Notes under the pieces: model-generated | Databases searched by the model: none | Seen by the model: the letters and a program-made list of their open reading frames with translations, nothing else | Told to the model about the DNA's origin: nothing | NCBI GenBank assembly: GCA_021784575.1 | Contig: JAJYHX010000001.1 | Coordinates: 413,917-477,916 of the forward strand | DNA: 64,000 nucleotides | Direction of reading: 5' to 3' | Source: Nitrospirota bacterium | Lineage (GTDB): Bacteria; Nitrospirota; JACRHJ01 | Program-made: the position numbers and the translations under genes | Shown here: positions 10,194 through 58,114 of the stretch, piece by piece | Position numbering within the stretch: position 1 is the first letter of the stretch | Layout: each line of letters starts with the position of its first letter

Positions 10194-10227
10194 CTTACTT
10201 CTTACCAGAGCACGAACGCGAAGAACG

Positions 10228-10530
10228 TTATTTTTTAACCTGCCTCCCCAGTAACTTCTCTATGGACGCCACCTTCCCCTCGATCCTGTTCGTCCGTGTC
10301 TTCCTGTCGTCGATGCTTATCTCCGTGATGACGCGCTCCGTCTGGCCGGCCAGGAGCTGGTGGCATCTTTTTATAAGCCCCATGACCTCGTCCCAATCGC
10401 CCTCCACGACCGTCCCCATCGCGTTTACCTTGTATGGCAGGCCGGATTCGTCCACCACCTTTATAACCTTCGCCACATGCTCCGATACGGACGCCCCGAC
10501 CATCGGCCACATGGAAAATTCCACGACCAT
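10228..10530 (-). CDS. MTH1187/YkoF family protein (DUF77, thiamine-binding-like), 100 aa
   Basis: MVVEFSMWPMVGASVSEHVAKVIKVVDESGLPYKVNAMGTVVEGDWDEVMGLIKRCHQLL: typical family signature (V.EFSI.P.G...S.S.YVA). The track ORF is extended by 20 spurious N-terminal codons. Confidence 0.6.
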   Translation of the reverse strand: MVVEFSMWPMVGASVSEHVAKVIKVVDESGLPYKVNAMGTVVEGDWDEVMGLIKRCHQLLAGQTERVITEISIDDRKTRTNRIEGKVASIEKLLGRQVKK

Positions 10531-10832
10531 GACGCACCTCCATAAAAAATGAACTGCAGGGGCGGTTACATGCCACGAGCTCGGCCACAATGGCCTGCTT
10601 TAAATTAGACCGTGGCTAAGAAACCGGCCCTGCAGGAACGGACTGTATAAGTTATTATGATTAAGATTAACAGAACGGGCGGAATCTGTAAAGCCGGCAG
10701 ACCGGCTTCGGGCCGGTGCAGGGCCTAACGACGCCCCAGGATTCCGTATTTTCCCGTTGATTTTTATAACCCCTTGTGTTATCAATTAGTTTTACGCGTG
10801 AAAGTTGTTTCCATTAATTAAATTTAACTACC

Positions 10833-33614: not shown

Positions 33615-33628
33615 GGTTTAAAGAACAG

Positions 33629-42423: not shown

Positions 42424-44052
42424 ATGGGTAGTAAGATGTTCACGAGAAACAAGCTGGTTGCCTTGGCGGCGGCTTCGCTTCTCTTTATTCTAAGTGTTGT
42501 TGCCGCATTTCCCGCGCAGGACTCCGTCAAGCCTCCGATATGGGTTGGCATCTACATCGCCGCAGAGAAGGTGGGGCTTAAGTGGACGCCGGTCAAGGGC
42601 GCTGTACGGTATAAGATATACCGTTCCATTTCCAGCGGCGGCCAGTACAACCTCATCGCGTCAACTACGGACGACTCTTACATCGACCCCACGGTCCTCA
42701 TAGGGGAGACCTACTACTACGTCCTCAAGTCCGTCGGAGCCGGCAGCAAGGAATCGGGTTATTCCGAAGAGCGTTATATAAAGGTGCCGGTCGTCAAGGA
42801 GACCGTGCCCGTCCAGCCGCCGGAATGGGTTGGCGCGCTGGTGGGAAGAAGAAGGATAAGGCTCGCCTGGAATCCCTCCGCCTCGAAGGACGTCCTCGCA
42901 TATAACGTCTACAGGAGCGCCGACCCAACGAAGGGTTTTCAGCTCATCGGCTCCACTCAGGACACCAGCCTCACCGACACGGACATAAAAGAAGGCGAGA
43001 CATACTACTATGCCGTCTCCGCCCTGGATAGAAATTTCAGGGAGACAAAGCTCGGAAAGGTGCAGACCGTCCGGTATGCGCCTTCGGAGGGGAAACCGGG
43101 CGTCGGGGCCGTCCGGCCAGGCGCGTCCGAGATGCCGCCGCGGATTATACCGACAAGGCTGACTATCAGGCGCACCCGGCGGGTGGGATATATCCTGAGG
43201 TGGAAGAACCGCAGGCCGCTTTTTTCTCCGACGGATGTCGTCCTTGGCAAGGACGGGAAGATATACGTATCTGATACCGGCGACAGCATGATACAGGTCT
43301 TCAAGCCGGGAGGCGCCTTCATACGGTCCATCGGCAAGTTCGGGACAAAGCCTGGGCAGTTCGAGAAGCTCCTCGGCGTGGATGTCAACGACAAGGACGA
43401 AGTCCTCGCCGTTGACGCTTATACCGGCACGATACAGAAGTTCGACAAGAAGGGCCGTCTCATAATGTTCAAGAAGATGCTTGATGACAGCAAGGCCATC
43501 GCGCTTGACCTTGGACGCAAGAAGCCGGTGGAGGTCTTCGGCATAATAAAGGGCCTCTTCGCCCCGGACGGGAACCTGTACATAATCGACAACTTCAACG
43601 ACTGCGTCGAAATTTATTCGCCGACCGGCAAATATATAAAGACGTTCGGAGGCAAGGGAAGGCAGGACGGGAAGTTCCTGTCTCCCACCTTTGCCATATT
43701 CGGGAAAGACGGGCATCTCTACGTGTCCGATTGCATGAACGCGCGCGTCCAGGTGTTCGACAAGGACGGACACTTTCTGTGGAAGTTCGGCGGGTACGGA
43801 AATATCGCCGGGACATTCGGCAGGCCGAAGGGCATCTGCATCGACAAGGCCGGCAATATATACGTCTCGGATTCCATGTCCAACGCGATACAGGTGTTCG
43901 ACAGGCACGGCAGGTTCAAGTACGCCCTGGCGAACAGAATGGGCAAACAGATTGATATGGCCACTCCGAACGGTATAGCCATCGACAAAGACAAGCGCAT
44001 CTATATCGTCGAGAAGCTGGTGAACCGTATCCAGATCAGACAGGTCGAGTAG
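42424..44052 (+). CDS. Secreted NHL-repeat beta-propeller protein with two N-terminal FN3-like domains (paralog 2)
   Basis: Signal peptide; FN3 signatures (RYKIYRSISSGGQYNLIA...ETYYYVLKSV; YNVYRSADPTKGFQ...ETYYYAVSALD); NHL blades (GKIYVSDTGDSMIQVFKPGGAF, GNLYIIDNFNDCVEIYSPTGKYI, GHLYVSDCMNARVQVFDKDGHFL, GNIYVSDSMSNAIQVFDRHGRF, KRIYIVEKLVNRIQI). Confidence 0.7.
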   Translation: MGSKMFTRNKLVALAAASLLFILSVVAAFPAQDSVKPPIWVGIYIAAEKVGLKWTPVKGAVRYKIYRSISSGGQYNLIASTTDDSYIDPTVLIGETYYYVLKSVGAGSKESGYSEERYIKVPVVKETVPVQPPEWVGALVGRRRIRLAWNPSASKDVLAYNVYRSADPTKGFQLIGSTQDTSLTDTDIKEGETYYYAVSALDRNFRETKLGKVQTVRYAPSEGKPGVGAVRPGASEMPPRIIPTRLTIRRTRRVGYILRWKNRRPLFSPTDVVLGKDGKIYVSDTGDSMIQVFKPGGAFIRSIGKFGTKPGQFEKLLGVDVNDKDEVLAVDAYTGTIQKFDKKGRLIMFKKMLDDSKAIALDLGRKKPVEVFGIIKGLFAPDGNLYIIDNFNDCVEIYSPTGKYIKTFGGKGRQDGKFLSPTFAIFGKDGHLYVSDCMNARVQVFDKDGHFLWKFGGYGNIAGTFGRPKGICIDKAGNIYVSDSMSNAIQVFDRHGRFKYALANRMGKQIDMATPNGIAIDKDKRIYIVEKLVNRIQIRQVE

Positions 44053-44054
44053 CC

Positions 44055-46181
44055 GTGAAAAAGCTTGTTTTGATTCTTGCCGCAATAGTAAGCGTAATCG
44101 CCGCGAAAGAAGTTTTCGCGGGGGTTATCGGTTCTCCGCACGATATAGCCGCCCAGAAGTATGTTGTAGCCGGCGAGCAGCAGTGGACCAAGAACGTGTG
44201 CAACTACTGCCACGTTCCGCACAAGGCGAAGGGCGCGATGCTCTGGCCGACGCCTCCTCCGGCGCTCAAGGGCTGGGGCAGGGTAGGGCCTTTGTGTTAT
44301 TCCTGCCACGACGGCGTGGCGATTGTCTCTCCCTACGTGGATGCGTCCCAGACGGTTTTCAATCCGAAGAGCCACGGACTCAAGCTTGCAGACCTCCCGG
44401 CGGGCGACGACGCATCCGGCTCCGGCCTGCCGTATACCAACGGCAGCCAGGACCACATCGAATGCAGCACGTGCCATAATCCGCACGACGACACGCACAG
44501 GCCCTTCCTCCGGGTGGACATCAACCAGCTCTGCGAGAAGTGCCACAAGCACCGCGAGAACTCCGGCTACGGCATAAACAACGCCGAGGGAACCCATCCG
44601 GTTCACATGCCGCTTAAAGACCAGACTGGCGGCCGCATCCCGCTTGAGCCCATCAGCAGCTTCATGGTGCCGTTCCCGATGCCGTATCCAAAAGAGAACG
44701 GGAAAAACACGTACGGCGTGCACTGGACGCTTGGCGGGCATCTCTCGGATGGCTCAACCGGAACGGTGGAATGCACCACCTGCCACAGCATACACGGCAG
44801 ACTGCCCTCCGGGCCGTTCTACAAGCTTCTCAGCGTCGATCCTGTGAAGGACGACGCGGACAATTTCTGCGAGGGCTGCCACAGGGGCAAGAGAGCCGAC
44901 GGACTGCCGTCCCCGCCATATCCGAACCCGGGCGGCACGACAGCCCCGCTCAGTTATCATCCCGCCGACAACGACACCTGCAACGGCACGACCGACACGA
45001 CCAACGGCAGGATTGTGGCGATAAACGAGCCGGACGGATGGGTATTCGGCAAGCACGGAGAGGTTCTCTGCACGACCTGCCATGAACCGCACGGCGCCCG
45101 GAAAAACTCTCCGATACTGAGGCAGGACCCGGATTCGCCGACGTTCTGCGAGTCGTGCCACTCGGTTCCGTTCCCGCATCACCCGACCGGAGACCTCACC
45201 GGCAATTCAAACATAAATTCGGGCGACGCGCACGCCAGCACGAGAGAGATTGTAATACCCCCGTCCTTTCCCGCCGGGATCACGTACGGCGACCCGAAGC
45301 CCGGCTGGCTGTACTGCTCAAGCTGCCACAGGGCGCACAACGCCAACTGCACCCCGATTCTGGTAATAGACTGTCGAAACGGCACCGCCTGCGACATATG
45401 CACTATGTGTCATCCGAAGTACAACCCTACATGGCAGACTGACGACAACTGGAAGTCTACCCATTTCATGGGAGATCCGACGGCGTTTACAGTGCCCTAC
45501 ATAACATTGCAGGGCGATCTCGAAGGAACACAGCCGGGGTATTACGACCAGTATCCGCCCATGCACATAGGAAAATGGCCGGAATCGGGGCTGGAGTCGC
45601 AATACGGAGGGCCGAGCGGCAAAGAGATAACGTGCTGTTCGTGCCACAGCTTCGACGTGGGTAACATTACCGCCGGAAACGCCGACCAGTCTCCGTACCT
45701 TGGGCCGATACTCGCTCCCGGATACCAGCCGACTGACCTGGTTTCAGGGCTTCTTGCGAGGGCCGGCAGTTACAAGGAATGGCTGCCGAGCGACGTGCAG
45801 GATGTTATAATCGGCGGCAACCGCGGCACCGAACAGATAGTTGACAAATACCTCTGCACAGGCTGTCACGGCCTGACGCCGAGGACGGACGTGTCGTCGG
45901 GCTGGGAAGGCTTTACGCATCCCATGATGAATGCCGACGGCTCCACCCTGGCGAATATAATTGCGCCTGCCACCCTGACTTTCAACCAGCATGTAAACTG
46001 CGAGTCCTGCCATACCCCGCACGAAGCCGACAGCAGGGGCGGTTTCCTGATACTAAAGACTGCGGCCCTGAAAGACCCGATGGCAAACAGCGCGCCGCCG
46101 GATCCCTACCGCATCTACAAGGATCCGGTCAATTACATCGAGTTCGCGCCGCTTTGCGAACTCTGCCACATAGGATATTGA
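44055..46181 (+). CDS. Secreted multiheme c-type cytochrome, 708 aa, 14 CXXCH motifs in paired arrangement (cytochrome B)
   Basis: GTG start 3 nt after NHL2 stop; signal peptide MKKLVLILAAIVSVIAAKEVFA; GSPHDI motif; CNYCH, CYSCH, CSTCH, CEKCH, CTTCH, CEGCH, CTTCH, CESCH, CSSCH, CTMCH, CSCH(CCSCH), CTGCH, CESCH, CELCH. Confidence 0.75.
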   Translation: MKKLVLILAAIVSVIAAKEVFAGVIGSPHDIAAQKYVVAGEQQWTKNVCNYCHVPHKAKGAMLWPTPPPALKGWGRVGPLCYSCHDGVAIVSPYVDASQTVFNPKSHGLKLADLPAGDDASGSGLPYTNGSQDHIECSTCHNPHDDTHRPFLRVDINQLCEKCHKHRENSGYGINNAEGTHPVHMPLKDQTGGRIPLEPISSFMVPFPMPYPKENGKNTYGVHWTLGGHLSDGSTGTVECTTCHSIHGRLPSGPFYKLLSVDPVKDDADNFCEGCHRGKRADGLPSPPYPNPGGTTAPLSYHPADNDTCNGTTDTTNGRIVAINEPDGWVFGKHGEVLCTTCHEPHGARKNSPILRQDPDSPTFCESCHSVPFPHHPTGDLTGNSNINSGDAHASTREIVIPPSFPAGITYGDPKPGWLYCSSCHRAHNANCTPILVIDCRNGTACDICTMCHPKYNPTWQTDDNWKSTHFMGDPTAFTVPYITLQGDLEGTQPGYYDQYPPMHIGKWPESGLESQYGGPSGKEITCCSCHSFDVGNITAGNADQSPYLGPILAPGYQPTDLVSGLLARAGSYKEWLPSDVQDVIIGGNRGTEQIVDKYLCTGCHGLTPRTDVSSGWEGFTHPMMNADGSTLANIIAPATLTFNQHVNCESCHTPHEADSRGGFLILKTAALKDPMANSAPPDPYRIYKDPVNYIEFAPLCELCHIGY

Positions 46182-46189
46182 GGGATACA

Positions 46190-48481
46190 ATGCTGCGGAC
46201 GGCGAAACATATCATGCTTGTTCTGACGGTCGCGGCGGCGCTGCTCCCGGCTGTTGCGTACGCGGCAATAGGCGGCACGGAATCGAAACACAACATGACA
46301 CTGTTAGGCGGCTACCCCTACGGCCAGAACGTATGCGACGCATGTCATTCGTCACATTTCGACTCGGGCGTTAGGCTTTGGGCGGCGGGCAGGCAGACGG
46401 AACTCGCTAACGCAAAGAATCAGTCTCAGGACGAACTGGCCGGCGGGAATTATCCGGGCATATACCTCTGCCTCGACTGCCATAGCACGGCAGCGTCGGT
46501 TCCATCGGCGCCTGCCTCCTGGGCAAAGCCCGCCGCCGAGAACGTCGTCACGCACTCGACGCTCGAAATGAAATTCGCCGGGTATTCCACGAAATACGAG
46601 TCTTTTACGATGCAGTGCACCACCTGCCATAATACGCATCAGTACTGGAACGGCACGTTCCAGCCGGGCCAAAACGGATACATGATACGCTCCACCATCA
46701 TCACCCCGAACAGCGGCGTTAAGAAGGTGGTCTTCTACGCGATATCCGGCCCGAACTCCATGGGGAACGACTATACGCCCCATACGTCCATATGCGAGGT
46801 CTGCCATACCAGGACCACTTACCACAACAACGCGTCATCCAATAACCCGCATTACGACGGGCAGAAATGCACTCTCTGCCACAACCACCAGAACGGTTTC
46901 AGCGCGAGGTGGACATGCACCTCCTGCCACGGGAACCCGCCGACGAGCCAGCCGCTGCTTGTGGGCCGCTCCCTGAAGAACGGTTATCCGCCCACAGGCG
47001 AGACCTCGGCGGGTATGCACGCCTTCCACTTCTACTCCACGAAGGTTTATTCCACAAACGGGTCCTTCAGCGTCGGTTATTCCTGCGACTACTGCCACAA
47101 GGGCGGCATGAACGATACCGGGCTTACCGACAAGATTATAGAAGTGAAGTTCTCGGATTTTAGCCGCTACACATCCGGCAGTTTCGACGGCTTTGCTCCG
47201 ATAAGCGGCTATACCTTCAGCCCCGGCAATACCACCGGCGGGACGCAGGCCTGCTCCAACACCTATTGCCACGGCAACTTCTACGGCGGGAACAAGACCA
47301 ACAAGCCCGTATGGACAAACGCCGCGAGCGGGGCATGCGGCACCTGCCACGCCACCGCCCCACCGGCCCTTCTCGACCACAGCGTGCACCTAACGGCCTC
47401 GTGGGGACCGAAGGCGTCCTGCGACGACTGCCACGGCGCCAACGCCTCCATTGGCAGCAACACCGGGCACGTGGGCGGGTTCGTCATATTTGCAGACTTG
47501 AAGAACTTCTCCACCACGACCGTTTGCAACGGGTGCCACGGAAGCGGCGCGGCGATGGCAAAGGCATACTGGGGGCACACCAGCATCAGGTCGCAGGACT
47601 CCTGGTGCGAGTCCTGCCACAACGGCAACAGCCCGGCGTCCGTCGTGAATACCGCCGCCGGGACAGGCGGAGTCAATGTTACCGCGCAGAATGTCGTCGG
47701 CGACAAAACGACCTACGGTTACGACTATACCGGCCACGGCGCGCCCCCGGGCGCGATCCAGTGCACCGCATGTCACGACATAAAGTCTCAGCACGTGGGC
47801 CCAGCCTCGTTCTCGTACAAGGCGTCGTCCAATAACTACAGGTCCGCCTTCAGGATGGGTTCGGTGTCCAATACCGTCCCGCTGCTCGGCAGCTATACGT
47901 CTTCGGCGGCGGCGCTGTGCTATTCCTGCCACAGCCAGACGAAGATACTGGGTATGCCCGCCGAGGGAAAACCGTCATCCATGCACGTCCACAACCCCAT
48001 ATACATTTCCTCCTGGGCCACGGATTTCCGCAATACCTCGACGATACTCGGACTTTACAGCGGCGGCGACTGGGACGCCACCGGCAGCAGCGCCGACGAG
48101 CCCACCAACATCCACTGGAACCACCTTGACGACTACGGGAGCACCAAACGCTACCCGTCGGCCTACATATACGACTCCGACGGCGACGGAGCCGGAGACT
48201 CCCGCATCGTCTGCGATACATGTCACGACCCGCACGGCACGCAGCAGCCCGCGATGGTATACGATGCGTTCGACCTGAGGACTTATTCCGCCCCGCCCAA
48301 TCCCGGCTACAGATGGGTAAACGGAAGCGGATATGCGACGAACAGGTGCATTTCCCCCGGCAACTCATGTCATACGGCGGGAGATTTTCCTGGAACCGCG
48401 GGCATGAGGTGGTATCGGCAGACCCTGTCGAATACCACAACCGGCGCCCCGGTGGGACTTACGGCGACTCAGCTGCAATAG
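46190..48481 (+). CDS. Secreted multiheme c-type cytochrome, ~764 aa, ~15 CXXCH (one CX4CH) motifs (cytochrome C)
   Basis: ATG at 46190 with RBS gaggg; signal peptide MLRTAKHIMLVLTVAAALLPAVAYA; CDACH, CLDCH, CTTCH, CEVCH, CTLCH, CTSCH, CDYCH, CSNTYCH, CGTCH, CDDCH, CNGCH, CESCH, CTACH, CYSCH, CDTCH. The track ORF start at 46154 overlaps cytochrome B. Confidence 0.75.
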   Translation: MLRTAKHIMLVLTVAAALLPAVAYAAIGGTESKHNMTLLGGYPYGQNVCDACHSSHFDSGVRLWAAGRQTELANAKNQSQDELAGGNYPGIYLCLDCHSTAASVPSAPASWAKPAAENVVTHSTLEMKFAGYSTKYESFTMQCTTCHNTHQYWNGTFQPGQNGYMIRSTIITPNSGVKKVVFYAISGPNSMGNDYTPHTSICEVCHTRTTYHNNASSNNPHYDGQKCTLCHNHQNGFSARWTCTSCHGNPPTSQPLLVGRSLKNGYPPTGETSAGMHAFHFYSTKVYSTNGSFSVGYSCDYCHKGGMNDTGLTDKIIEVKFSDFSRYTSGSFDGFAPISGYTFSPGNTTGGTQACSNTYCHGNFYGGNKTNKPVWTNAASGACGTCHATAPPALLDHSVHLTASWGPKASCDDCHGANASIGSNTGHVGGFVIFADLKNFSTTTVCNGCHGSGAAMAKAYWGHTSIRSQDSWCESCHNGNSPASVVNTAAGTGGVNVTAQNVVGDKTTYGYDYTGHGAPPGAIQCTACHDIKSQHVGPASFSYKASSNNYRSAFRMGSVSNTVPLLGSYTSSAAALCYSCHSQTKILGMPAEGKPSSMHVHNPIYISSWATDFRNTSTILGLYSGGDWDATGSSADEPTNIHWNHLDDYGSTKRYPSAYIYDSDGDGAGDSRIVCDTCHDPHGTQQPAMVYDAFDLRTYSAPPNPGYRWVNGSGYATNRCISPGNSCHTAGDFPGTAGMRWYRQTLSNTTTGAPVGLTATQLQ

Positions 48482-48492
48482 GAGAGTCGGCT

Positions 48493-50928
48493 ATGAAGAT
48501 GAAAATGACGAAGACAAAAACGGTTCTACTTTTTGCGGTGTTCGCGCTTGTTGGCGTTGCCGCAGGGCTGCCCGCCGAGGCTGCGCCGGCGACCGCGCGT
48601 ATCGTGCCTGCGCGGATGCGTCCGCAGATGGCGGCGCGCGTGTTTGCGCCGGAAACGTCCGTGCATATGCAGAGGTTCGCGCCCGGGCATATGTCCATGC
48701 CCATGCGTATGCCGGCGCAGATTCGTCCATGGCAGAGGCCCGCGCCCGGGCAGGCATCCACGCCCATGCGTATGCCGGCGCAGATTCGTCCGATGCAGAG
48801 GCCCGTGCCCGCGCAGACCAGTCCGGTGCGGAGGTCCGCGTCCGGGCAGACCAGTCCGCAGGCGCCTGCGCAGAAGCCCGTCTCCGGCCAAACGTCCGCC
48901 GCCGGTCAAACCGCCCCGGCCGGTAAAAGCGGCGGGCCTGGCATAAAGCTTCAATGGAAGGCCCCCGCCGGCATTGCCGTGTCGAAGATAGCGGGGTACT
49001 ACATCCTGCGCGCCGACAAAGAGCTTGGGCCGTATAAAAGAATAAACGAAAGCCCTGTCAAGACGCTTTCGTACGACGATAAGGGCCTGAAAGACAAGGC
49101 GGGGTATTTCTACGAGGTTTGCACGGTTTTGCAAAACGGCACGATGAGCCGCCCCACGAAGCCTGTCGGGATAATTGTCGGAAGCAAGCAGACGTACGCG
49201 CCGCCGCGGATAGAATCCTTTGGCGCGGATTCCGCCGGGAAAGTCAGATATGCCGGAGAGACCGCGTTTTTCAACATGAGCGGGACTCCGGGAGACAACG
49301 CGGTTTTTTCCATCGAAGGTCAGACAGGCGGGATAACGACGCCCGGCACGCAGATAACGATGAAGGAGATAACGCCCGGCGTTTACAGGGGCGCATACAC
49401 CGTGGCGCGCGGCGTCCGGATAATAAACGGTTATGCGGCGGCTACATTGTCGGATGACAAGGGAGGGCAGGCTGCCGCAAAGACCGGCGCCAACCTCGAT
49501 TTTATCGGGATGGCCAAACCGGCAATCTCCGGACTTTACGCAAGCCGGATTACAAGCGACAGCGTGTGCGTCGGCTGGCCCCGCGTCGACACCGGCGAAG
49601 GATATTACAACCTGTATCGGGACACCTCGCGCATAGTGGACGCCAGCAAACTTACCCCGCTGTCTGCGAACATGAACACCAGCGTATCCACATTCATAGA
49701 CGATTCCGTAAAGGCGGGGACAAGCTACTACTATGTCCTGGTTTACGACGATCTTTCGGGCGCGCCGCTCGCCATAAGCGATAACCTGGAAGTCAATGTC
49801 CCGTGGATGCATGTTTCATTCGGAGCAAACTCCGTGCATGAAGACTCCGGAGGGAAAACCCTGAAGCCCGGAGACGTCCTCGGCGTAACCGTGAACACGG
49901 CGGCCGGCGGCAAGGCGGCATTCAGTATAAGCAATACGGCCAGCAACCTTGCGCTGACGGAAGGCCCGGCCGGGGTCTACAAGGGCGCGTGGACGATAAA
50001 GGAGGGCGACGGGATATTCAAGAGCAGGGTGGCCGTGAATTTTACGGCCCCTGACGGCAGACAGCATTCCGCGCTGTCCGCAACGCTTGTCTCCGTGGAC
50101 GCCCCGAAGGCAAATCAAGTGAAGCCCGCCGTTCTTGCGGCCTCCGTGAAAACCATTGGGGGCAGGAATCCGGTACTGGTCAATAGCAGAAATCCAGCCG
50201 GGATTAATAAGAAGCTGCCCGGAGCCGGGAAGCCGGTTATCGCCGGGATTAAAGGCAACGTCAGGGTAATTCCGGGGCCGCCGGGCAGGCCGGCAGCCGG
50301 AAAGAAACTTACCGTATTGCCCGGGAAGGCGGGAAGAACGTCAATCATCACAACCGGAGGGCTTGCCTCAAGACCCGGCGGTGTCATCGGCGCGGCGCAG
50401 GCGGCGAAGAGCGCATCAATCATCACGGGCGGGAGGCCTGACTCAATACCGCGTGGGCTGCCGTATGAATTTCAGAAGCCGGAACCCCGGCCATCTCCTG
50501 CTCCGGGAATGCATTCTCCGGCTTCGGGAATACAAAGGGCCGGCGGCTCGTTTCCGGGCAGGCCGGCGGAAAGCGCCGGAACCCCGGCGAACGCTGTGAA
50601 CCCGATTGGCGTTGTAAACCCGGCAGGCACTGTGGCCCCGATTGGCGTTGTGAACCCGCTTGGCGCTGTAAACCCGGCAGGCACTGTGGCCACGATTGGC
50701 GTTGTGAACCCGCTTGGCACGGTGAACGCGGCGGGCGCGGGGAATGCTGCCGCGGGGCCTGTCTCAAGCCTTCCGGCGCCGTCGCATGGGAAGAAAAAAC
50801 CGGGAACTCCGCAGTCTCCGGCTTCGGGAACACAGTCTCCGGTTCCGGGAATGCAGTCTCCGGTTCCGGGAATGCAAAAGGCCGGCGGCTCGGTTCCGGG
50901 CCACGGCGTTTCGGCCTTTGGAGACTGA
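48493..50928 (+). CDS. Large repetitive secreted/surface protein (~811 aa) with FN3-like and Ig-like domains, N-terminal Met/Pro/Arg-rich repeats and C-terminal NPxGxV repeats
   Basis: Signal peptide MKMKMTKTKTVLLFAVFALVGVAAGLPAEA. Repeats MPMRMPAQIRP(W/M)QRP x2; FN3-like (GYYILRADKELGPY...; GYYNLYRD...SYYYVLVYDD); two Ig-like modules; C-terminal tandem (NPIGVVNPAGTVAPIGVVNPLGAVNPAGTVATIGVVNPLGTVN) mirrored by ~60-nt DNA tandem repeats at ~50590..50720 and ~48700..48830. Confidence 0.55.
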   Translation: MKMKMTKTKTVLLFAVFALVGVAAGLPAEAAPATARIVPARMRPQMAARVFAPETSVHMQRFAPGHMSMPMRMPAQIRPWQRPAPGQASTPMRMPAQIRPMQRPVPAQTSPVRRSASGQTSPQAPAQKPVSGQTSAAGQTAPAGKSGGPGIKLQWKAPAGIAVSKIAGYYILRADKELGPYKRINESPVKTLSYDDKGLKDKAGYFYEVCTVLQNGTMSRPTKPVGIIVGSKQTYAPPRIESFGADSAGKVRYAGETAFFNMSGTPGDNAVFSIEGQTGGITTPGTQITMKEITPGVYRGAYTVARGVRIINGYAAATLSDDKGGQAAAKTGANLDFIGMAKPAISGLYASRITSDSVCVGWPRVDTGEGYYNLYRDTSRIVDASKLTPLSANMNTSVSTFIDDSVKAGTSYYYVLVYDDLSGAPLAISDNLEVNVPWMHVSFGANSVHEDSGGKTLKPGDVLGVTVNTAAGGKAAFSISNTASNLALTEGPAGVYKGAWTIKEGDGIFKSRVAVNFTAPDGRQHSALSATLVSVDAPKANQVKPAVLAASVKTIGGRNPVLVNSRNPAGINKKLPGAGKPVIAGIKGNVRVIPGPPGRPAAGKKLTVLPGKAGRTSIITTGGLASRPGGVIGAAQAAKSASIITGGRPDSIPRGLPYEFQKPEPRPSPAPGMHSPASGIQRAGGSFPGRPAESAGTPANAVNPIGVVNPAGTVAPIGVVNPLGAVNPAGTVATIGVVNPLGTVNAAGAGNAAAGPVSSLPAPSHGKKKPGTPQSPASGTQSPVPGMQSPVPGMQKAGGSVPGHGVSAFGD

Positions 50929-51007: not shown

Positions 51008-52813
51008 ATGCTCTTTGTAAAGTATTGGCCCGCGGTTGTGGCGGGGGCCGCGGTGTTTTTTGCCCTGTTCTCAAACCCGATGCTCTCTTTTGCCGCGATG
51101 AGCTACGGAACGGATTTATCTTATCAGCAGAACAGTTCGACCAGCGGCAGTATTACCAGCAGCAACGCCCAGGAGCGGTTCGGAGCCTATTTCGACATGC
51201 TGTCCGCGCCAAACTCCAAACTGACGCTTACCGGGATATTCCGCCTGGACGTTGTCAGGAATACGGCAAATGCCGGGAGCAAGAGCTTCGAGCTCGACCC
51301 GGATGTCGCCGTCAATATGTCCACCAGGGCGACGCAGATTGGCGTCGGCTACACGGATATTAACGTGACCAACAATATCATAACAAACGGACAGACCCAG
51401 ACCCAGACGACGAAAGCCACGGATATGTACGCGGACTCCGCTTTTGCCAGCGGGAACCTTCCGGCGCTCAGGGTCAGATACGACGCGCGCAACCAGAACC
51501 AGTCCGCCTCGGGCTCGCCGTCCAGCGACACGAAGACGGGAGCGTTCGACGTGTCGACTAATTACAGGATCGGCATAATTGCGTTTAGCGGCGATTACAA
51601 CAACCAGGCGACAACGACCAACACGACCGGACAGACCCAGGATACGACCTCTATAAACGGCCAGGTCAGCGCGGCGAAAAGTTTTGGAAGCAGATTTACC
51701 GCAGGCGTGAGCGAGAATTACAACTACGCGCTCGCCACCACTGACGGCCAGGCCAATTCCAAGGCCTATAATTCAATATCCGATTTGACTGCGTCATATG
51801 TGCCTATTGCCGGGGCGCAGGTTTCGGGGAGCTATCTATACAGGTTGTCGGAAGACCTCCTCAATGCGTCCGGCACCGGCAGGACCACCCAGAGCACGTA
51901 TTTCAGCTCGGCCAGTTACGCATTTCCGAAATATCTCCGGCTCTACGGTTCGTATATCCTGAACGACTCATCGGGGGGGATAAGCTCGTCCTCGAGCCAG
52001 ACGCTCGGCGGAATGGACCTGATCCACCACGTAGGCATATTTACCTTCAGCTCAAGGTACGAAAAGAGATTCGACACAAACAGCAGCCAGGGGAGCGCCT
52101 CGACTTCGGATACTCAGGACAACGTGGACTGGCTTATCTCCGCCCATCCGTCCATGTTCCTCAACATGGCCCTCTCCGAATCGTACGTCAATTCCTCGAA
52201 CTCATCCAACACGGGCAGTTCGTCAAACGAATTCAGGTTTATGACCAACATCGGCCCGATAAAGAACCTGTCCATGAACCCTTACTGGGACTATACGGTA
52301 TCGGCCACATCTCCCGGTTCTTCCTCGACCAACAATATGGATATGGTTATCCCGGTGATGTATGTGCTGAGCCTGCGGCAGAGGTTGATGATGAATTTCT
52401 CAGACATGTACAGGATGGCATGGGCCGGCGGCACAGGCGCGGCCACCACGTCTACAACCCAGAACAACGCGGTTGTAAGGCTTTCTCTCGCAAGGCCGCT
52501 GCCCAACACGATGTTGACCGCCGACGCGGCCTTCAACACCTCATGGGGCACCAACGCGCAAGCCGTCACGACCAGCTCATATTCTCTCATGGGAAGCTGG
52601 TTTGATCAGCCGCACGCGCTGAACTTCAATTTAATGTATCAGCCGGCGTCCTTGTCTCCGGCCACCATGAATTTGGCCGCGCAGTACAGCCTCGGCGTAA
52701 GGCTCAGGAACCTGGCCGTGAGCTTGCAGGCGCGGTATAGCTACTCACAGGTTTTTACATCCGAAAGGAACAATTCACAGGCGATTTACCTTTCGTTAAG
52801 TATCAGGAAATAA
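51008..52813 (+). CDS. Putative outer-membrane beta-barrel protein (Ser/Thr/Asn/Gln/Tyr-rich, amphipathic beta-strand pattern)
   Basis: Signal peptide MLFVKYWPAVVAGAAVFFALFSNPMLSFA; many alternating hydrophobic/polar strands (RFTAGVSENYNYAL, YLRLYGSYILND, AVVRLSLARPL, NLAVSLQARYSYSQVF, AIYLSLSIRK). No terminal Phe, so beta-barrel assignment is tentative. Confidence 0.4.
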   Translation: MLFVKYWPAVVAGAAVFFALFSNPMLSFAAMSYGTDLSYQQNSSTSGSITSSNAQERFGAYFDMLSAPNSKLTLTGIFRLDVVRNTANAGSKSFELDPDVAVNMSTRATQIGVGYTDINVTNNIITNGQTQTQTTKATDMYADSAFASGNLPALRVRYDARNQNQSASGSPSSDTKTGAFDVSTNYRIGIIAFSGDYNNQATTTNTTGQTQDTTSINGQVSAAKSFGSRFTAGVSENYNYALATTDGQANSKAYNSISDLTASYVPIAGAQVSGSYLYRLSEDLLNASGTGRTTQSTYFSSASYAFPKYLRLYGSYILNDSSGGISSSSSQTLGGMDLIHHVGIFTFSSRYEKRFDTNSSQGSASTSDTQDNVDWLISAHPSMFLNMALSESYVNSSNSSNTGSSSNEFRFMTNIGPIKNLSMNPYWDYTVSATSPGSSSTNNMDMVIPVMYVLSLRQRLMMNFSDMYRMAWAGGTGAATTSTTQNNAVVRLSLARPLPNTMLTADAAFNTSWGTNAQAVTTSSYSLMGSWFDQPHALNFNLMYQPASLSPATMNLAAQYSLGVRLRNLAVSLQARYSYSQVFTSERNNSQAIYLSLSIRK

Positions 52814-52917
52814 AGAGTGAATTCAATCTTTAAAAATTTTTAATTTTCAAAGATTGATGTTGCAAATCAATTATAGCTATGATAAAAAGTCAAACTGGGG
52901 GAGGGGGAGCGTTTATT

Positions 52918-53697
52918 ATGCGAATTAGTATCAGGTTTCTTCTTTTTGCATGTCTGGCGGTTTTATTTCTTGCTGGTTGCGGAAGCGGGACGACCCGTCT
53001 TTTTACCAAGCCTATCGCCGAATCCACTTACGTGACATATCCGGAATGGGGCCCCGACTGCGACGTCGCGGTTATGCCTTTCGTGAACGTGTCCAAGGAC
53101 AAGGATGCGGGCCTTAAGGCGCGCGATCTCTTCGTTACCGAGCTCTATATCTCCGGCGCCTTCAAGGATGTCGTGGACGAGGGCCAGATGGTCGAGGTAA
53201 TGAAGAAGCTTAAGCTTAGGGAGACCGACAACATCGGCAAGGACACGCTGAAGACCCTTGGGGACAGCTTGGGCGTTCAGGCCGTCATATTCGGCACGGT
53301 CGAGGTGTACAACGAACGGTCCACCCAGGGCGCGCAATTCGCGGTATCGTTGCGCATGGTGGATGTCGATACCGGCCAGATACTCTGGCTCGGGGACGCG
53401 TCCAAGGAGGGCGGCGGGACGGTTTCCGAGGCCCTGGGGCTTTCCAGCGGCCCGCCCGTAATCGACGTTGCGCGCGACGTCATGAGCGGCCTCGTGGACG
53501 ACCTTGCGAGTGAAATAAGGGACAGGAAGGTAACGGGTAAAAAGGCCCTTGCGCTTTTAAAGAGAGAGAAGATGGGAAATGTATTGAAGGCCAAGGTGAA
53601 TAGCGCGCTCGTCCCGAACCAGCAGGCCGGAGCTGTGCCGCCGCCCGCCGTTAAAAGCAACTCCGCGGGCATAACGCCTGCGCCGGTCGTTCCTTAA
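52918..53697 (+). CDS. Lipoprotein of the LpoB/CsgG/TolB-N-like fold family (PF-type VAVMPFxNxS motif)
   Basis: Lipobox LFLAGCGS with ATG at 52918 and RBS gggggaggggga. VAVMPFVNVSKDKDAGLKARDLFVTELYISGAFKDVVDEGQ...AVIFGTVEVY matches the conserved LpoB/CsgG-like core. Pro/Ala-rich C-terminal tail. Confidence 0.45.
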   Translation: MRISIRFLLFACLAVLFLAGCGSGTTRLFTKPIAESTYVTYPEWGPDCDVAVMPFVNVSKDKDAGLKARDLFVTELYISGAFKDVVDEGQMVEVMKKLKLRETDNIGKDTLKTLGDSLGVQAVIFGTVEVYNERSTQGAQFAVSLRMVDVDTGQILWLGDASKEGGGTVSEALGLSSGPPVIDVARDVMSGLVDDLASEIRDRKVTGKKALALLKREKMGNVLKAKVNSALVPNQQAGAVPPPAVKSNSAGITPAPVVP

Positions 53698-53749
53698 GAT
53701 GGGGTGGCGGGAAAATACCGTGATTCCCGGATGACGATGTTTCATTGTT

Positions 53750-53832
53750 CGTCATTCCCGCGAAGGCGGGAATCCAGTGACTTTAAAAATCGCTGGGCCC
53801 CCGTTTAAAGACGTCCGGGGATGACAGGCTTT
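53750..53832 (+). repeat. MITE-like repeat family A copy in the spacer upstream of NHL paralog 3
   Basis: cgtcattcccgcgaaggcgggaatccagtgactttaaaaatcgctgggcccccgtttaaagacgtccggggatgacaggc. Confidence 0.6.
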
Positions 53833-53896
53833 AAAATTCGCGGGCACGGGTATTAATAACGAGAACAGGGGTTTTAAGTATAAAATGCGTATATCC

Positions 53897-55381
53897 ATGA
53901 AGAATATAAAAACTGTTGCGGTATATGCGGCCTTCGCCCTTGCAGTCTGGGGCTGCGGCCACAGCACGGTGGTCGTGGGGCGCCGGGCCGAGATTAAAGG
54001 CATAAAACCCCAGGAGCAGTCCCAGCCTTCGGTATCGGCGAAGTCCGCCAAGGCCGCCGGCCGGAAACAACAGTCCGTCCTCGCGGGCGCAAAAGGCGGC
54101 GCGATGGGCATGGGCGGGCCGTCCGGCGCGAAAGCATCGACTGCCAAGGTTGCCGCCAATATGCTGCCGCAGTCTTCGCCGGCAAGGCCGCGGCCCGCGC
54201 CTCCGAAAGAGGAAGCAAAGTCAAAATCCGGCCCCGCGCCATACAAGCTCGACCTCTCCTTCGGCGGTTTCGGGCTTGGGATAGGGCTTTTCGATACGCC
54301 CGTGGCCGTTGCGGTGGACGACCAGGAAAATATGTATGTCGTTGACCAGGGTAACTACCGCATACAGAAGTTTGACCGTTTCGGCCTCTTCCAGTTCGCA
54401 TTCGGCAGGCAGGGCATGGGAGAGGGGGAGTTTGCGCAATCCATGACGACCCCCACGGCCCTGCGCGAGACCGGCGAGTTCGAGTTCAACAAGCCCGTCG
54501 GGATATACCTCGACCAGGACCGCACCAGGAACCTGACCAGGATACAGGTTGTGGACTCTCTGAACAACCGCATACAGCGTTTCCTCGTCGCGTCCAACGT
54601 ATCGGACTTCATGAATGTGTACAACCCCTTCGACGCAAGTCCGCCGAACGTTTTTATCATGCTCACAAAAACCGGGAATGCGGTCGATACGGCCCTGCAC
54701 GACAAGTTCCTTGCGGAGAACAGGCTCGTCATACTCGACCCGCTATACCTCCAGGACATTGCGGGAAAGGCCAACGCATTCCTGCTTACTCCGTTTATAT
54801 GGGGTGGGCTGGGCTTCACGCAGGGCCAGCTTAACCAGCCGACATATCTTACAATGGACGAAAACAACGTCCTTTGGGTTTCCGACACCGGGAACGGACG
54901 CGTGGAAGGCTTCAATGTAAGCGAGTCCAACCCCGCGGTCGATGCGACATATTTCCGCGAGTTCGGAAACGACACGAACCTCTCTTACGGCAAGGGCAGG
55001 CTCAATCAGCCGACCGCCATCGCCTACGATAACGAGGGACTCGGCGGGTTCCTTGTCCTCGACAAGCTCCCGGACGGCACTTACGCAATCGAGAAATTCG
55101 ACAGAGACGGCCGTTTCAAGGGGATATTTACCAAATCCGGCGACAAGGAAGGACAGTTGAAAGAGCCGGTTGACATCGCCCTGAGCCCTTTCGACAATAC
55201 CTGTTTCGTTACGGACAGGGGCAGGCGGAAGGTTATGGTCTACAACAACAAGGGCGTGTTCATGTACGAGTTCGGCGGCAACGAGCTGGCGGATCCGAGG
55301 GGCATAACGGTCTTAAGGAACGGCTATGTCTATGTTACGGACGCCGCCAAGAACATGGTCTACCGGTATGTCCCGCAATAA
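53897..55381 (+). CDS. Secreted/lipo NHL-repeat beta-propeller protein (paralog 3; lacks FN3 domains, has Ala/Lys/Gly-rich linker)
   Basis: MKNIKTVAVYAAFALAVWGCGHS signal; NHL blades (ENMYVVDQGNYRIQKFDRFGLFQFAFG, TRIQVVDSLNNRIQRF, NNVLWVSDTGNGRVEGFN, FLVLDKLPDGTYAIEKFDRDGRF, NTCFVTDRGRRKVMVYNNKGVFM, GYVYVTDAAKNMVYRY). Confidence 0.65.
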   Translation: MKNIKTVAVYAAFALAVWGCGHSTVVVGRRAEIKGIKPQEQSQPSVSAKSAKAAGRKQQSVLAGAKGGAMGMGGPSGAKASTAKVAANMLPQSSPARPRPAPPKEEAKSKSGPAPYKLDLSFGGFGLGIGLFDTPVAVAVDDQENMYVVDQGNYRIQKFDRFGLFQFAFGRQGMGEGEFAQSMTTPTALRETGEFEFNKPVGIYLDQDRTRNLTRIQVVDSLNNRIQRFLVASNVSDFMNVYNPFDASPPNVFIMLTKTGNAVDTALHDKFLAENRLVILDPLYLQDIAGKANAFLLTPFIWGGLGFTQGQLNQPTYLTMDENNVLWVSDTGNGRVEGFNVSESNPAVDATYFREFGNDTNLSYGKGRLNQPTAIAYDNEGLGGFLVLDKLPDGTYAIEKFDRDGRFKGIFTKSGDKEGQLKEPVDIALSPFDNTCFVTDRGRRKVMVYNNKGVFMYEFGGNELADPRGITVLRNGYVYVTDAAKNMVYRYVPQ

Positions 55382-56624
55382 GCCTGTAATTGTCCTCTTT
55401 GCGCTGTTTTTGTTTGTCTTAGCAATCCCTCTCGCAAGGTCAGCGGCTGCCGGAACGAAGGCGCGGAATGGTGTCACATCCGGGGCCGGCTCTCCGCGGG
55501 ACCGCTCCCACGCAGGGTCAAAGACCGACAAAGTGAAGACGCAGGGCAAAGGCGTGCTCGTGCTCGTGCCCGAGAACCTTTCCGCCGTCTACTCCGAAAC
55601 CGAGCTCTCCGGGGCCCGGCGGCGCGAGGTCTCTGTCCAATCCACCACAGAAGGAGAGATTTCGGTGGTGGGAATAGCGGACGGCAAGCCGGAGATAGAG
55701 ATAGTAAATAACGGCAGGTCCAAGGTAACGCCGGTATTTTACGGCAAGTATTTCCACGCGCAGATTATCCTGTCGCTCGGCGAGAACATGATAAGCGTGC
55801 GCTGGAGAAGGAAGGGCGGGGACTGGAATGTCCAGACCATTTCGCTTTTCCGCTCCTCCAGGATGCTCGGCGCGCCGGTTGTAAACTACCCGCCTTATTC
55901 CTTTCACACTCCCAAGAACGAAGAGCAGTGCCAGGAGTGCCACCAGATGCAGCTTACGCGTAAGGAAATAGAAACGGCAAGGGACTTGAGCTGCCTTAAG
56001 TGCCATGCCGACCTGACGAGCAATATTTACGTCCACGGCCCGGTAAACGTGGGCATATGCACGGTATGCCACGACCCGAACAGCAAGCCGAACAAATACA
56101 AGGTGGAGGAAGGCGACAAGACACTGTGCTACTCCTGCCACACGGACAGGGAGAAGATAGACGACAAGATGAAGCGCGAGCACGGCCCCGTAGGCGCGGG
56201 GCTTTGCACTGTATGCCACGACCCTCACGGCTCGCCATTCAGGTATCAGCTTGTTAAATCCAAAAACGAGATATGCCTGATGTGCCATCAGAGCGATGCG
56301 AACCACTGGCTAAACCAAAGCAGCCTTCATCCGCCGTTTAAAAAGGGAGAATGCTACAGGTGCCACGACCCTCATTCCGCGAACTATAAATACAACCTCA
56401 AGGCCGACAGGAAGCATATCTGCTTGATTTGTCATACCCTTCCCATACCCGGCCATCTTCACGACCCGGGCAAGGTGCCGCTTTTCAAGCTGCCGCCGGA
56501 TTTTCCCCTTACAAAACATGGGAAAACGATGTGTCTGACCTGCCACTCCCCACATGGCGCCATAGGCCCGCACCTGACCCGCCGGAGGGGTTGCAAGGGC
56601 TGCCATCCGGACAAGGACTCGTAG
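55368..56624 (+). CDS. Periplasmic decahaem c-type cytochrome (~418 aa, 10 CXXCH; MtrA/OmaB-like size class) (cytochrome D)
   Basis: ATG at 55368 overlapping NHL3 end; signal/TM MSRNKPVIVLFALFLFVLAIPLARSAAAG; CQECH, CLKCH, CTVCH, CYSCH, CTVCH, CLMCH, CYRCH, CLICH, CLTCH, CKGCH. Confidence 0.7.
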   Translation: MSRNKPVIVLFALFLFVLAIPLARSAAAGTKARNGVTSGAGSPRDRSHAGSKTDKVKTQGKGVLVLVPENLSAVYSETELSGARRREVSVQSTTEGEISVVGIADGKPEIEIVNNGRSKVTPVFYGKYFHAQIILSLGENMISVRWRRKGGDWNVQTISLFRSSRMLGAPVVNYPPYSFHTPKNEEQCQECHQMQLTRKEIETARDLSCLKCHADLTSNIYVHGPVNVGICTVCHDPNSKPNKYKVEEGDKTLCYSCHTDREKIDDKMKREHGPVGAGLCTVCHDPHGSPFRYQLVKSKNEICLMCHQSDANHWLNQSSLHPPFKKGECYRCHDPHSANYKYNLKADRKHICLICHTLPIPGHLHDPGKVPLFKLPPDFPLTKHGKTMCLTCHSPHGAIGPHLTRRRGCKGCHPDKDS

Positions 56625-56646: not shown

Positions 56647-56679
56647 AAAAAAAGCCCCGTAAAAACGGGGCCTTTTTTA
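56647..56679. terminator. Bidirectional rho-independent terminator (A-run, GCCCCG-loop-CGGGGC, T-run) closing the cytochrome cluster and the convergent small gene
   Basis: aaaaaaagccccgtaaaaacggggcctttttt. Confidence 0.8.
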
Positions 56680-56690
56680 TGTCTTTCCGG

Positions 56691-57175: not shown

Positions 57176-58114
57176 ATGGAAACCAAGAATAAGATTACTC
57201 TACCGGAACTTGCAACTTACTTCCACAATGAGGATGCCGCGCGGGAATTCCTTGAGAAACTCCGTTGGCCGGACGGCGTGGTCTGCCCGCATTGCGGCTC
57301 TATCAATGAACATTATCGGATTGTGCCAAAAGAAGGCTCCAAGACCCGCAAGGGCCTTTGGAAGTGTAAGGACTGCCGCAAGCAGTTCAGCGTTACGGTA
57401 GGAACCGTTTTTGAAGGCTCTCATATTCCCATTCATATCTGGCTTTATGCTATCCATGAAATGAGTTCCGCTAAAAAAGGCGTGAGCGCGCACCAGCTTC
57501 ACCGGAAACTTGGGATAACCTATAAATCCGCTTGGTTTATGGCACATCGGATAAGATTTATAATGGAAGGTGATACGCCGTTAGCCGAGAAAATGAAGGG
57601 CATCGTTGAATGCGATGAAACGTATGTAGGGGGAAAAGGGAAGGGGCTTGGCAAGAAATTCTGTGGTCGTGGAACTCTCAAGACTCCTGTCTTTGCACTC
57701 GTTGAAAGGGATGGTCGTGTTAAATCTCAGGTTGTGGAGCGCGTAACCGGTAAGAATTTAAAGGGTATAATCAAGAAAAACGTCGAAACCGCTTCCACGA
57801 TAATGACGGACGATTTCAAGTCCTATAAAGGGTTAAACAAGATATTTTATGCTCATAAGGTGGTAGAGCACGGCAAGAAGATTTACAGTAAGCCCGGTGG
57901 AATTCACACCAACACAATTGAAGGCTATTTTTCTATCCTGAAACGTGGTATAGTTGGCGTATACCAGCACGTCGGCAAACAGCACCTTGACAGGTATCTC
58001 GCCGAATTTGATTTCAGATACAATGCCCGCAAGGTTACGGATGGGGAGCGTGCCGTATTAGCTCTCAAGGGCATTGAAGGAAAGCGGCTGATGTATCGGG
58101 ACTCATCGCTATGA
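57176..58114 (+). CDS. IS1595-family transposase (N-terminal zinc-ribbon plus DDE_Tnp_IS1595 domain)
   Basis: 312 aa; VCPHCGS...WKCKDCRKQFSVTVGTVFEGSHIPIHIWLYAIHEM (ISXO2-like Zn ribbon/HTH), DDE region ...VECDETYVGGK...IMTDDFKSYKGL...HKVVEHGKK...HTNTIEGYFSILKRGIVGVYQHV. Confidence 0.8.
   Translation: METKNKITLPELATYFHNEDAAREFLEKLRWPDGVVCPHCGSINEHYRIVPKEGSKTRKGLWKCKDCRKQFSVTVGTVFEGSHIPIHIWLYAIHEMSSAKKGVSAHQLHRKLGITYKSAWFMAHRIRFIMEGDTPLAEKMKGIVECDETYVGGKGKGLGKKFCGRGTLKTPVFALVERDGRVKSQVVERVTGKNLKGIIKKNVETASTIMTDDFKSYKGLNKIFYAHKVVEHGKKIYSKPGGIHTNTIEGYFSILKRGIVGVYQHVGKQHLDRYLAEFDFRYNARKVTDGERAVLALKGIEGKRLMYRDSSL

Follow-up and report, generated by a model that had tools for sequence, protein, structure and literature searches.

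How multi-haem cytochromes and nanowires cross the outer membrane and stay attached to it is an acknowledged open question. The Mtr/Pcc systems, among them MtrCAB of Shewanella and OmaB-OmbB-OmcB and Ext of Geobacter, encode a large plug-less barrel, a periplasmic decahaem cytochrome and outer cytochromes in one operon. The barrel has 26 strands in MtrB and about 20 in OmbB. In the osc cluster of Geobacter sulfurreducens (GSU2492-GSU2504), the prolyl isomerase OscH has been proposed for folding, OscE, OscF and OscG for secretion of OmcS, and the beta-propeller OscD for filament morphology; OscI and OscJ are cytochromes, and GSU2497 carries a lipoprotein annotation and GSU2499 a hypothetical one (Shen et al. 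2025, as described in citing papers). The OmcE clusters of Desulfuromonadia are described as having a minimal set of two multi-haem cytochromes, two beta-propeller lipoproteins, OmcE and a large beta-barrel, for which a porin-mounting model has been discussed, and OmcE homologues with a porin gene nearby have been reported in Nitrospirota, with glycosylation genes of the GT39 type often adjoining (bioRxiv 10.1101/2025.10.22.684050). The Uet cluster of 'Ca. Tenderia electrophaga' and some Gallionella, read in the literature as a porin-cytochrome complex and considered to serve electron uptake, not export, encodes the isomerase UetB, the barrel UetC (28 strands predicted, pore of ~5 nm), the NHL proteins UetH and UetI, and the doubled-CXXCH undecahaem cytochrome UetJ. 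Here, we describe a barrel gene and its operon in a 64,000-nucleotide (nt) stretch of DNA from a Nitrospirota bacterium (GenBank assembly GCA_021784575.1, contig JAJYHX010000001.1, positions 413,917 to 477,916 of the forward strand), which we call the window and whose own numbering is used throughout; all genes of the operon and of the surrounding cluster are on its plus strand. What is new in this locus is a family of barrels, predicted to have 30 strands, that is obligately paired with a lipoprotein and encoded within an osc/OmcE/Uet-like Nitrospirota cytochrome cluster.

A large barrel of an unannotated family

The open reading frame (ORF) at 51008-52813 starts with ATG and encodes a protein of 601 residues, identical to database protein P0001, that the initial annotation of the window had tentatively taken for a beta-barrel. 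We modeled it in AlphaFold2 with a 25-sequence alignment, an earlier run with nine close homologues having reached a predicted local distance difference test score (pLDDT) of only 55 and been set aside. The resulting model (pLDDT 90.2; predicted template modeling score, pTM, 0.65) places an N-terminal signal helix, within a signal peptide of about residues 1-30, ahead of 30 antiparallel strands spread over residues 28-600; the strands average 15.7 residues and are joined on both faces by loops of 2-8 residues, with no plug and no extra domain. Hydrophobic alternation along the strands is 0.33, compared with 0.20 ± 0.03 in shuffled sequences, and lies above 1000 of 1000 shuffles (z about 5). 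With the positions of each strand numbered from the terminus side, those up to ~10 make up a hydrophobic belt with aromatic girdles, while the remaining 6-8 positions, of which 45-70% are Ser, Thr, Asn or Gln, make up a polar extension on the far side. The overall appearance of the strands (51089-52810) is that of an unusually bare barrel topped by a polar 'chimney'. Conservation is higher in the turns on the terminus side, which would be periplasmic, than in the far-side loops (0.66 vs 0.50), and the lower conservation of these loops fits with the far side being exposed at the cell surface.

In a Foldseek search of the PDB, the leading matches to the model were all large outer-membrane barrels (MtrB, SlpA, TonB-dependent transporters, LptD and PapC). 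The best E-value was obtained with MtrB (6r2q_B, 1.7e-10), at a low TM-score of 0.31, and the best TM-score, 0.42, with the 30-strand barrel of Deinococcus SlpA. The modeling confirms that the ORF at 51008-52813 encodes a genuine large outer-membrane beta-barrel, predicted to be plug-less and 30-stranded, and barrel topology rather than an adhesin fold is what was found. A redox role for the barrel itself was also considered and was ruled out, with no His, Cys or Met among its invariant or nearly invariant columns.

A scan of the protein against Pfam and NCBIfam gave no match at E<=0.01, and a search of PDB sequences with a profile of the barrel remained empty at thresholds as loose as E<=10. 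When 25 family members were compared with Pfam at E<=5, the MtrB_PioB family never appeared, and the only matches were weak ones to generic barrel families (DUF2490, Porin_4, OMP_b-brl and KdgM), so that the MtrB/OmbB-like profile suggested in the initial annotation found no counterpart here. A profile search of 1.84 billion representative proteins recovered 24 relatives. Loci of this family found in the genome collection all belong to Nitrospirota metagenome-assembled genomes (MAGs), further members lie on metagenomic contigs, and one member carries the annotation 'porin family protein [Nitrospirota bacterium]'. Judged by these profile searches, the barrel represents a small unannotated family, so far of Nitrospirota MAGs and metagenomic contigs, that falls outside MtrB/PioB (PF11854, TIGR03509). 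A remote barrel family, P0032, whose members are ~700 residues long and contain a discoidin-domain insertion, aligns with it in hhalign at 96.4% probability over the N-terminal 206 columns.

The C-termini of these proteins differ in one further respect. Outer-membrane proteins usually end in an aromatic residue. The core-family barrels P0001 and P0007-P0009 end in ...S/N/M-x-R/K-K, and the distant relatives compared (P0029-P0032) end in F; the non-aromatic C-terminus of the core family (52790-52813 in the window) could mean an atypical signal for the beta-barrel assembly machinery.

Conserved partners of the barrel

The gene that follows the barrel (52918-53697) encodes a lipoprotein of 259 residues. 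Its start is most likely at 52918, where a good ribosome-binding site is found together with a lipobox, LAGC, that is conserved among its homologues. Of the 41 homologues recovered, one shares 39% identity with it and the rest 55% or more; those that carry an organism name are all from Nitrospirota. In Pfam, its scores for CsgG and LpoB (29.7 and 26.7 bits) exceed the respective cut-offs of 20.8 and 22.3, while that for the GNA1162-like family falls just short (25.5 bits, cut-off 25.9). Among PDB sequences, its profile matches GNA1162 (4hrv, E 8e-4) and the ring-forming PelC (5t11, E 3.5e-3), bearing out the LpoB/CsgG-like assignment of the initial annotation. We take the protein to be a soluble-domain lipoprotein of the clan linked to secretion and assembly that includes GNA1162, PelC, CsgG and LpoB. 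It is unlikely to be a CsgG-type channel itself: the match covers positions 28-144 of the 210 in the CsgG profile, leaving the C-terminal third unmatched, and the direct comparison with CsgG in the PDB was not significant (E 0.36).

Next comes a gene for an NHL-repeat beta-propeller lipoprotein, NHL3 (53885-55381; Pfam NHL, E 5e-16), of 498 residues, with a lipobox, VWGC, whose cysteine is conserved in the related locus L001, and a low-complexity linker of ~100 residues. It overlaps the gene for cytochrome D (cytD; 55326-56624, alternative start 55368), a protein of 432 residues with exactly ten CxxCH motifs, all at residues 202-427. These form five doubled-CXXCH units within the last 240 residues (Pfam Paired_CXXCH_1, E 1e-39) and leave ~24 residues per haem, which is very little polypeptide. 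A type I signal peptide without a lipobox marks cytD as a secreted, non-lipidated decahaem, in agreement with its earlier description as a ten-haem carrier of periplasmic type. When the haem domain was compared with the PDB, MtrA was the sole match (6r2q_A, E 9e-11), in an alignment that sets repeat against repeat and does not run collinearly from end to end. Against the DmsE/MtrA family TIGR03508, cytD scores 96.2 bits over three stretches (E 2e-27) and misses the curated cut-off of 192.2 bits. The ~190 residues of its N-terminal region contain no haem motif and are conserved in L001 and in the distant locus L009. In its sequence, cytD appears MtrA-like and outside the DmsE/MtrA family, whose members have ~300-350 residues and no extra domain, compared with 432 residues including the N-terminal region here.

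The four genes are closely spaced, with gaps of 104 nt between barrel and lipoprotein and 187 nt between lipoprotein and NHL3 and an overlap of 14-56 nt between NHL3 and cytD, depending on which cytD start is chosen; the barrel stop lies 2.5 kb upstream of the cytD start. A hairpin resembling an intrinsic terminator (GCCCCGT-AAAA-ACGGGGC at 56654-56671, followed by a T run; 56654-56680 in all) lies 30 nt 3' of cytD and closes the operon. It is the sole convincing intergenic hairpin of this kind, none having been found upstream of 56654. Because the genes are so tightly packed and the terminator-like hairpin occurs solely after cytD, the four genes from barrel to cytD would form one transcription unit, and the whole stretch from ~32.6 kb to cytD is probably one as well.

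We then asked how far this arrangement is kept in relatives. A nine-gene order of peptidyl-prolyl isomerase, NHL protein, cytochromes B and C (cytB and cytC), protein X, barrel, lipoprotein, NHL protein and cytD is preserved in loci L001-L007, over a range of barrel identities from 85% down to 35%. The barrel is the fastest-evolving member of the set; where it is 35% identical, the lipoprotein is 64%, NHL3 62%, cytD 56% and cytB 67% identical. The lipoprotein gene is found directly 3' of the barrel gene wherever the downstream gene can be read, including in the remote P0032 family, and every locus long enough to show it also has an NHL or other beta-propeller gene, which in the core family and in L011 comes immediately behind the lipoprotein gene. 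The lipoprotein is the barrel's invariant neighbor, and the lipoprotein and NHL genes are the core of the module. This overturns the initial annotation on one point, namely that these two genes interrupt a barrel-cytochrome pair.

The barrel and cytD do stay together across the same range of barrel identities and also in L009, where the barrel is 14% identical. That locus encodes, in order, a 2603-residue cytochrome, an X-like protein with a Big_1 domain, products of two other genes, the barrel, the lipoprotein, an isomerase, an NHL protein, a thioredoxin and a cytD homologue. The homologue is fused to thioredoxin and is 33% identical to cytD over residues 47-427 of the latter, N-terminal region included. 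In the coordinates of L009 itself, the multi-haem cytochrome is at 1-2405 and the cytD homologue at 16061-17647, the latter with an AhpC-TSA/Redoxin domain and adjoined by the separate thioredoxin gene. Shorter loci show parts of the same order. In L015, a cytochrome gene and an X-like gene precede the barrel gene, and L016 has the barrel and the lipoprotein. In L011, the barrel, lipoprotein and NHL genes are followed by a sigma factor, with the downstream cytochrome absent and the upstream side cut by the contig end. We dropped L008 as an example of a minimal barrel-lipoprotein-NHL-cytD module, since its barrel and X genes are broken by frameshifts that may represent assembly error or decay. 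In this locus (9176-11830, from another Nitrospirota MAG), barrel and X are split over three frames and the downstream lipoprotein, NHL and cytD genes are intact; the breakage could come from long-read assembly error or from a decaying second copy.

The clusters of the P0032 family (L012, L017 and L018) have a different layout, with genes for an NHL protein, a YNCE propeller, the barrel, an LpoB-like lipoprotein, a protein of ~455 residues, a cytochrome, a protein of ~190 residues, a GNA1162-like lipoprotein, a SurA-type isomerase, a protein of ~650 residues and a further cytochrome. The first of these cytochromes and the GNA1162-like lipoprotein are present in L017 and L018 and not in L012, and L018 is without the ~650-residue protein. 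In L012, the 193-residue product is a second lipoprotein, and both small lipoproteins of this locus are homologous to the one in the window (E 6e-10 and 2e-7). Cytochromes in these clusters are of the doubled-CXXCH type, and one in L012 weakly matches OmcS (E 5e-6). The layout of the P0032-family clusters resembles that of the Geobacter osc cluster.

The upstream cluster

Genes for thioredoxin-like and cytochrome proteins extend the locus well upstream of the barrel. The probable head of the cluster (32607-35425) encodes a thioredoxin-like (AhpC-TSA) and TPR protein and a GT-C glycosyltransferase resembling PMT_2/TMEM260. There follow an NHL beta-propeller protein, NHL1 by order (35875-37551); cytochrome A (cytA; 37682-40609), with 14 CxxCH motifs; a peptidyl-prolyl isomerase of the SurA/PpiC (Rotamase) type, probably a lipoprotein (40818-42398); a second NHL beta-propeller protein, NHL2 by order, which carries a type I signal peptide and, near its N-terminus, Fn3-like domains (42424-44052); cytB (44055-46181), with 14 CxxCH motifs; cytC (46190-48481), with 14 CxxCH motifs and one CxxxxCH; and protein X (48493-50928), after which come the barrel, lipoprotein, NHL3 and cytD. 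Lipoboxes are present on NHL3 and on the prolyl isomerase, and type I signal peptides on NHL1, NHL2, X and all four cytochromes. Apart from X and the barrel candidate, every ORF at 32.6-56.6 kb could be assigned to a non-barrel family.

The first 165 residues of cytB (44055-44550) align in order with the whole of OmcE, including all four haem motifs (7tfs, E 2e-9), and they also match 9yuq, a multihaem cytochrome of 218 residues whose entry contains 16 chains. This OmcE-like unit is fused in cytB to ten further haems, in proteins that are 700-975 residues long. It is shared by cytA, whose N-terminal ~500 residues are a paralogue of the same cytB region, and is weaker in cytC; a module resembling domain II/IV of MtrC/MtrF is present in both cytC and cytA. 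An OmcS-family hexahaem was not found, as cytB, cytC and cytD gave no match to OmcS in the PDB (cytA was not searched).

Protein X, of 811 residues, has a signal peptide and central Ig-like/Fn3 domains between Pro-rich repeat tails, and its homologues carry Big_1 and Invasin_D3 domains. At the DNA level, tandem repeats with 63-nt and 54-nt units give rise to low-complexity tails, Pro-rich at the N-terminus and GVVNP-like at the C-terminus, that flank the Ig-like domains.

Several further observations concern the cluster's surroundings. With the AhpC-TSA/TPR protein and the GT-C glycosyltransferase at its head (32607-35425), the S/T-rich extension of the barrel and the cytochromes could be O-glycosylated; in Geobacter, GT2/4/39 and TPR genes have been reported to follow OmcE clusters. 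The ffh (SRP54) gene lies at 23924-25252, ~8 kb upstream of the cluster, and a syntenic region with ffh as its boundary has been reported for the OmcE clusters of Desulfuromonadia, though its presence here may be coincidence. Directly past the operon terminator is an IS1595-family transposase (57176-58114), and over 56-60 kb the G+C content falls from ~0.58 to 0.45-0.49; a mobile or foreign segment therefore adjoins the cluster. Elsewhere in the window, and unrelated to the barrel, are a 1399-residue BcrAD/BadFG ATPase and DUF2229 protein of the CoA-enzyme activase type (2066-6265, minus strand) and a TolC-like OEP protein (135-1439).

Relation to described systems and possible roles

Among described systems, the osc, OmcE-type and Uet clusters, and not Mtr/Pcc, come nearest to the locus in the genes they contain. 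With MtrCAB (PDB 6R2Q), OmaB-OmbB-OmcB and Ext, the locus shares a large barrel, predicted here to be plug-less, a periplasmic decahaem with few residues per haem, possible outer cytochromes and their encoding in one operon. Unlike in those systems, the barrel here has a predicted 30 strands and no match to the MtrB_PioB profile; its gene is not adjacent to that of cytD, the lipoprotein and NHL genes lying between them (four genes in L009); and no lipobox marks the candidate outer cytochromes as lipoproteins. Mtr also lacks the further parts conserved here (lipoprotein, NHL propellers, prolyl isomerase and X), and cytD, compared with MtrA, falls under the DmsE cut-off and has its 190-residue N-terminal extension in addition.

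The likeness to osc, compared by description, lies in a prolyl isomerase, one or more beta-propellers (three NHL proteins here) and a barrel with a lipoprotein beside doubled-CXXCH cytochromes, and the osc-like metagenomic clusters encode a barrel remotely homologous to that of the window with a homologous lipoprotein directly after it. The gene order is nevertheless rearranged relative to osc, no OmcS-family hexahaem was found here, and the propellers are of NHL rather than YVTN type. The OmcE clusters are matched by the OmcE-like N-terminus of cytB, the propeller lipoprotein NHL3, the predicted 30-strand barrel and the PMT_2-like glycosyltransferase at the head; however, the OmcE-like unit is just the first quarter of proteins that have 14 haems and are 700-975 residues long, and where OmcE clusters have propeller lipoproteins, NHL1 and NHL2 carry type I signal peptides without a lipobox. 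Uet, again compared by description, has an isomerase, a large barrel, NHL proteins and a doubled-CXXCH cytochrome in common with the locus, but it includes trihaem c7 proteins and a cupredoxin, has no lipoprotein reported beside the barrel and belongs to another phylum. Finally, PelB-PelC, and more loosely CsgG and LptD-LptE, pair a barrel with an oligomeric or plug lipoprotein, and here, too, a lipoprotein of the GNA1162/PelC/CsgG/LpoB clan is encoded next to an outer-membrane barrel, although the similarity is weak (E 1e-3 to 4e-3) and the presumed cargo is protein or haem, not polysaccharide or lipopolysaccharide.

What might such a barrel do? A 30-strand barrel without plug or long loops could not stay open, and we infer that it must be filled by protein. 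The reading that we tentatively favor, at somewhat less than even confidence, is that the barrel is the membrane-spanning part of a dedicated outer-membrane module, in an operon for extracellular electron transfer, that acts as an electron conduit, with electrons passing through the barrel by way of cytD. The barrel would sheathe a haem chain that crosses the outer membrane, the propeller lipoprotein NHL3 would hold cytD at the inner face of that membrane, and the N-terminal bulk of cytD would stay in the periplasm while its C-terminal ten-haem wire enters the barrel, with the polarity of MtrA in MtrB, to meet one of the 14-haem cytochromes outside. The OmcE-like N-terminus of cytB and the MtrC/MtrF-like module of cytC and cytA make these cytochromes candidates for the outer partner. 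Just as PelC surrounds PelB, the small lipoprotein may sit as a collar at the conserved rim on the periplasmic side, and the prolyl isomerase may act as a chaperone during assembly. We favor a conduit because of the conserved, MtrA-like cytD, whose gene overlaps that of the propeller lipoprotein and so would be translationally coupled to it. Support also comes from the recurrence of a cytD homologue in distant L009, downstream of the barrel, lipoprotein, isomerase and NHL genes, and from the parallel with Uet, itself read as a porin-cytochrome complex. On this reading, the module would be a porin-cytochrome conduit in mechanism and not a member of the Mtr/Pcc family. The porin-cytochrome-like pair of the initial annotation thus survives in part: the barrel, the MtrA-like decahaem and their shared operon stand, and membership by profile does not, with no match for the barrel, a sub-threshold DmsE score for cytD and no cytD downstream in L011.

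Several points weigh against a conduit. No porin-cytochrome profile matched any of the 25 family members, even at permissive thresholds. The immediate neighbors of the barrel gene are those of X and the lipoprotein, not of a cytochrome, and cytD lies two genes away here and four in L009; in L011, the barrel, lipoprotein and NHL genes occur without a downstream cytochrome, on a contig that ends upstream of them. Thirty strands exceed what an MtrA-like wire needs, MtrB managing with 26, and the closure of these strands is predicted, in a model whose pTM is 0.65. The placement of cytD within the barrel lumen is likewise proposed from sequence and a single-chain model, and OscE, OscF and OscG of Geobacter have been proposed to serve secretion rather than electron conduction.

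This last point leads to a second reading, which we consider a serious possibility though a less probable one. Barrel, lipoprotein, propeller and isomerase could together form a pore that exports the folded, haem-loaded cytochromes cytA, cytB and cytC, or that keeps a cytochrome or filament mounted in the manner of an usher, leaving cytD only as a periplasmic donor or accessory. The gene set fits the osc description (OscH, OscD, OscE/F/G, OscI and OscJ) and also the OmcE-cluster description, for which porin mounting has been discussed. The remote hhalign link to the P0032 barrels, whose clusters include the weak OmcS match in L012, the alignment of cytB residues 1-165 with OmcE, and the ties of the lipoprotein clan (PelC, GNA1162 and CsgG) to export all point the same way, and 30 strands without a plug would suit a large cargo. 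Any relation of the window's barrel and lipoprotein to OscE, OscF and OscG themselves is drawn from synteny and from the P0032 family, however, and the absence of an OmcS match from cytB, cytC and cytD, together with the fusion of the OmcE-like unit into proteins of 700-975 residues that are not known to polymerize, speaks against this reading. Export would also leave a conserved, MtrA-like cytD, coupled to the propeller lipoprotein, without a role, and the cluster encodes no energy source for it. Conduit and export pore are not mutually exclusive. In Shewanella, loss of MtrB also mislocalizes the outer cytochromes.

A more ambitious combination of the two is, in our estimation, unlikely as a whole, and we mention it as speculation. 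Barrel, PelC/GNA1162-like lipoprotein, propeller and SurA-type isomerase might constitute a 'cytochrome usher', an unrecognized ancient system, common to the osc and OmcE clusters of Geobacter and to Nitrospirota, that passes and mounts folded, haem-loaded cytochromes; here, the 14-haem cytochromes would polymerize through their OmcE-like modules into a wire with ten-haem side branches through the barrel, and cytD would feed electrons to it.

We regard it as improbable that the barrel instead moves protein X to the cell surface and holds it there, in the style of a two-gene inverse autotransporter, with the Ig-domain protein serving as an adhesin or as a scaffold for cytochromes. An X-like gene does lie directly 5' of the barrel gene in the window, in L001-L007 and in L015, and two genes upstream in L009, and its long disordered repeat tails could thread a pore. 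The Big_1 and Invasin_D3 domains of its homologues are typical of intimin and invasin passengers. Inverse autotransporters, on the other hand, consist of a 12-strand barrel fused to its passenger and not of a separate 30-strand barrel, few parts of the operon are less conserved than X (40% identity), and in the P0032-family clusters no gene is annotated with Big_1, although barrel, lipoprotein, propeller, isomerase and cytochromes are all retained. Least probable is a general giant diffusion porin or SlpA-like structural protein placed in the operon by chance, for which the SlpA TM-score and the weak Porin_4, OMP_b-brl, KdgM and DUF2490 matches might speak, but which sits poorly with the strict synteny that ties both of the remotely related barrel families to lipoprotein, propeller and cytochromes, with the lack of an SLH or other envelope-anchoring domain, with the leakiness that an open 30-strand pore without loops or plug would impose on the membrane, and with a distribution (24 representatives) too narrow for a housekeeping porin.

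The locus offers a compact, strictly syntenic version, in a different phylum, of the machinery by which multi-haem cytochromes may cross and stay attached to the outer membrane, and it adds large fusion cytochromes of Nitrospirota to the proteins with OmcE-like haem modules. The barrel and lipoprotein, adjacent across two remotely related barrel families, are a concrete and testable pair, and together they may serve as a marker for machinery of this kind that Mtr, Pcc and Cyc2 profiles miss.

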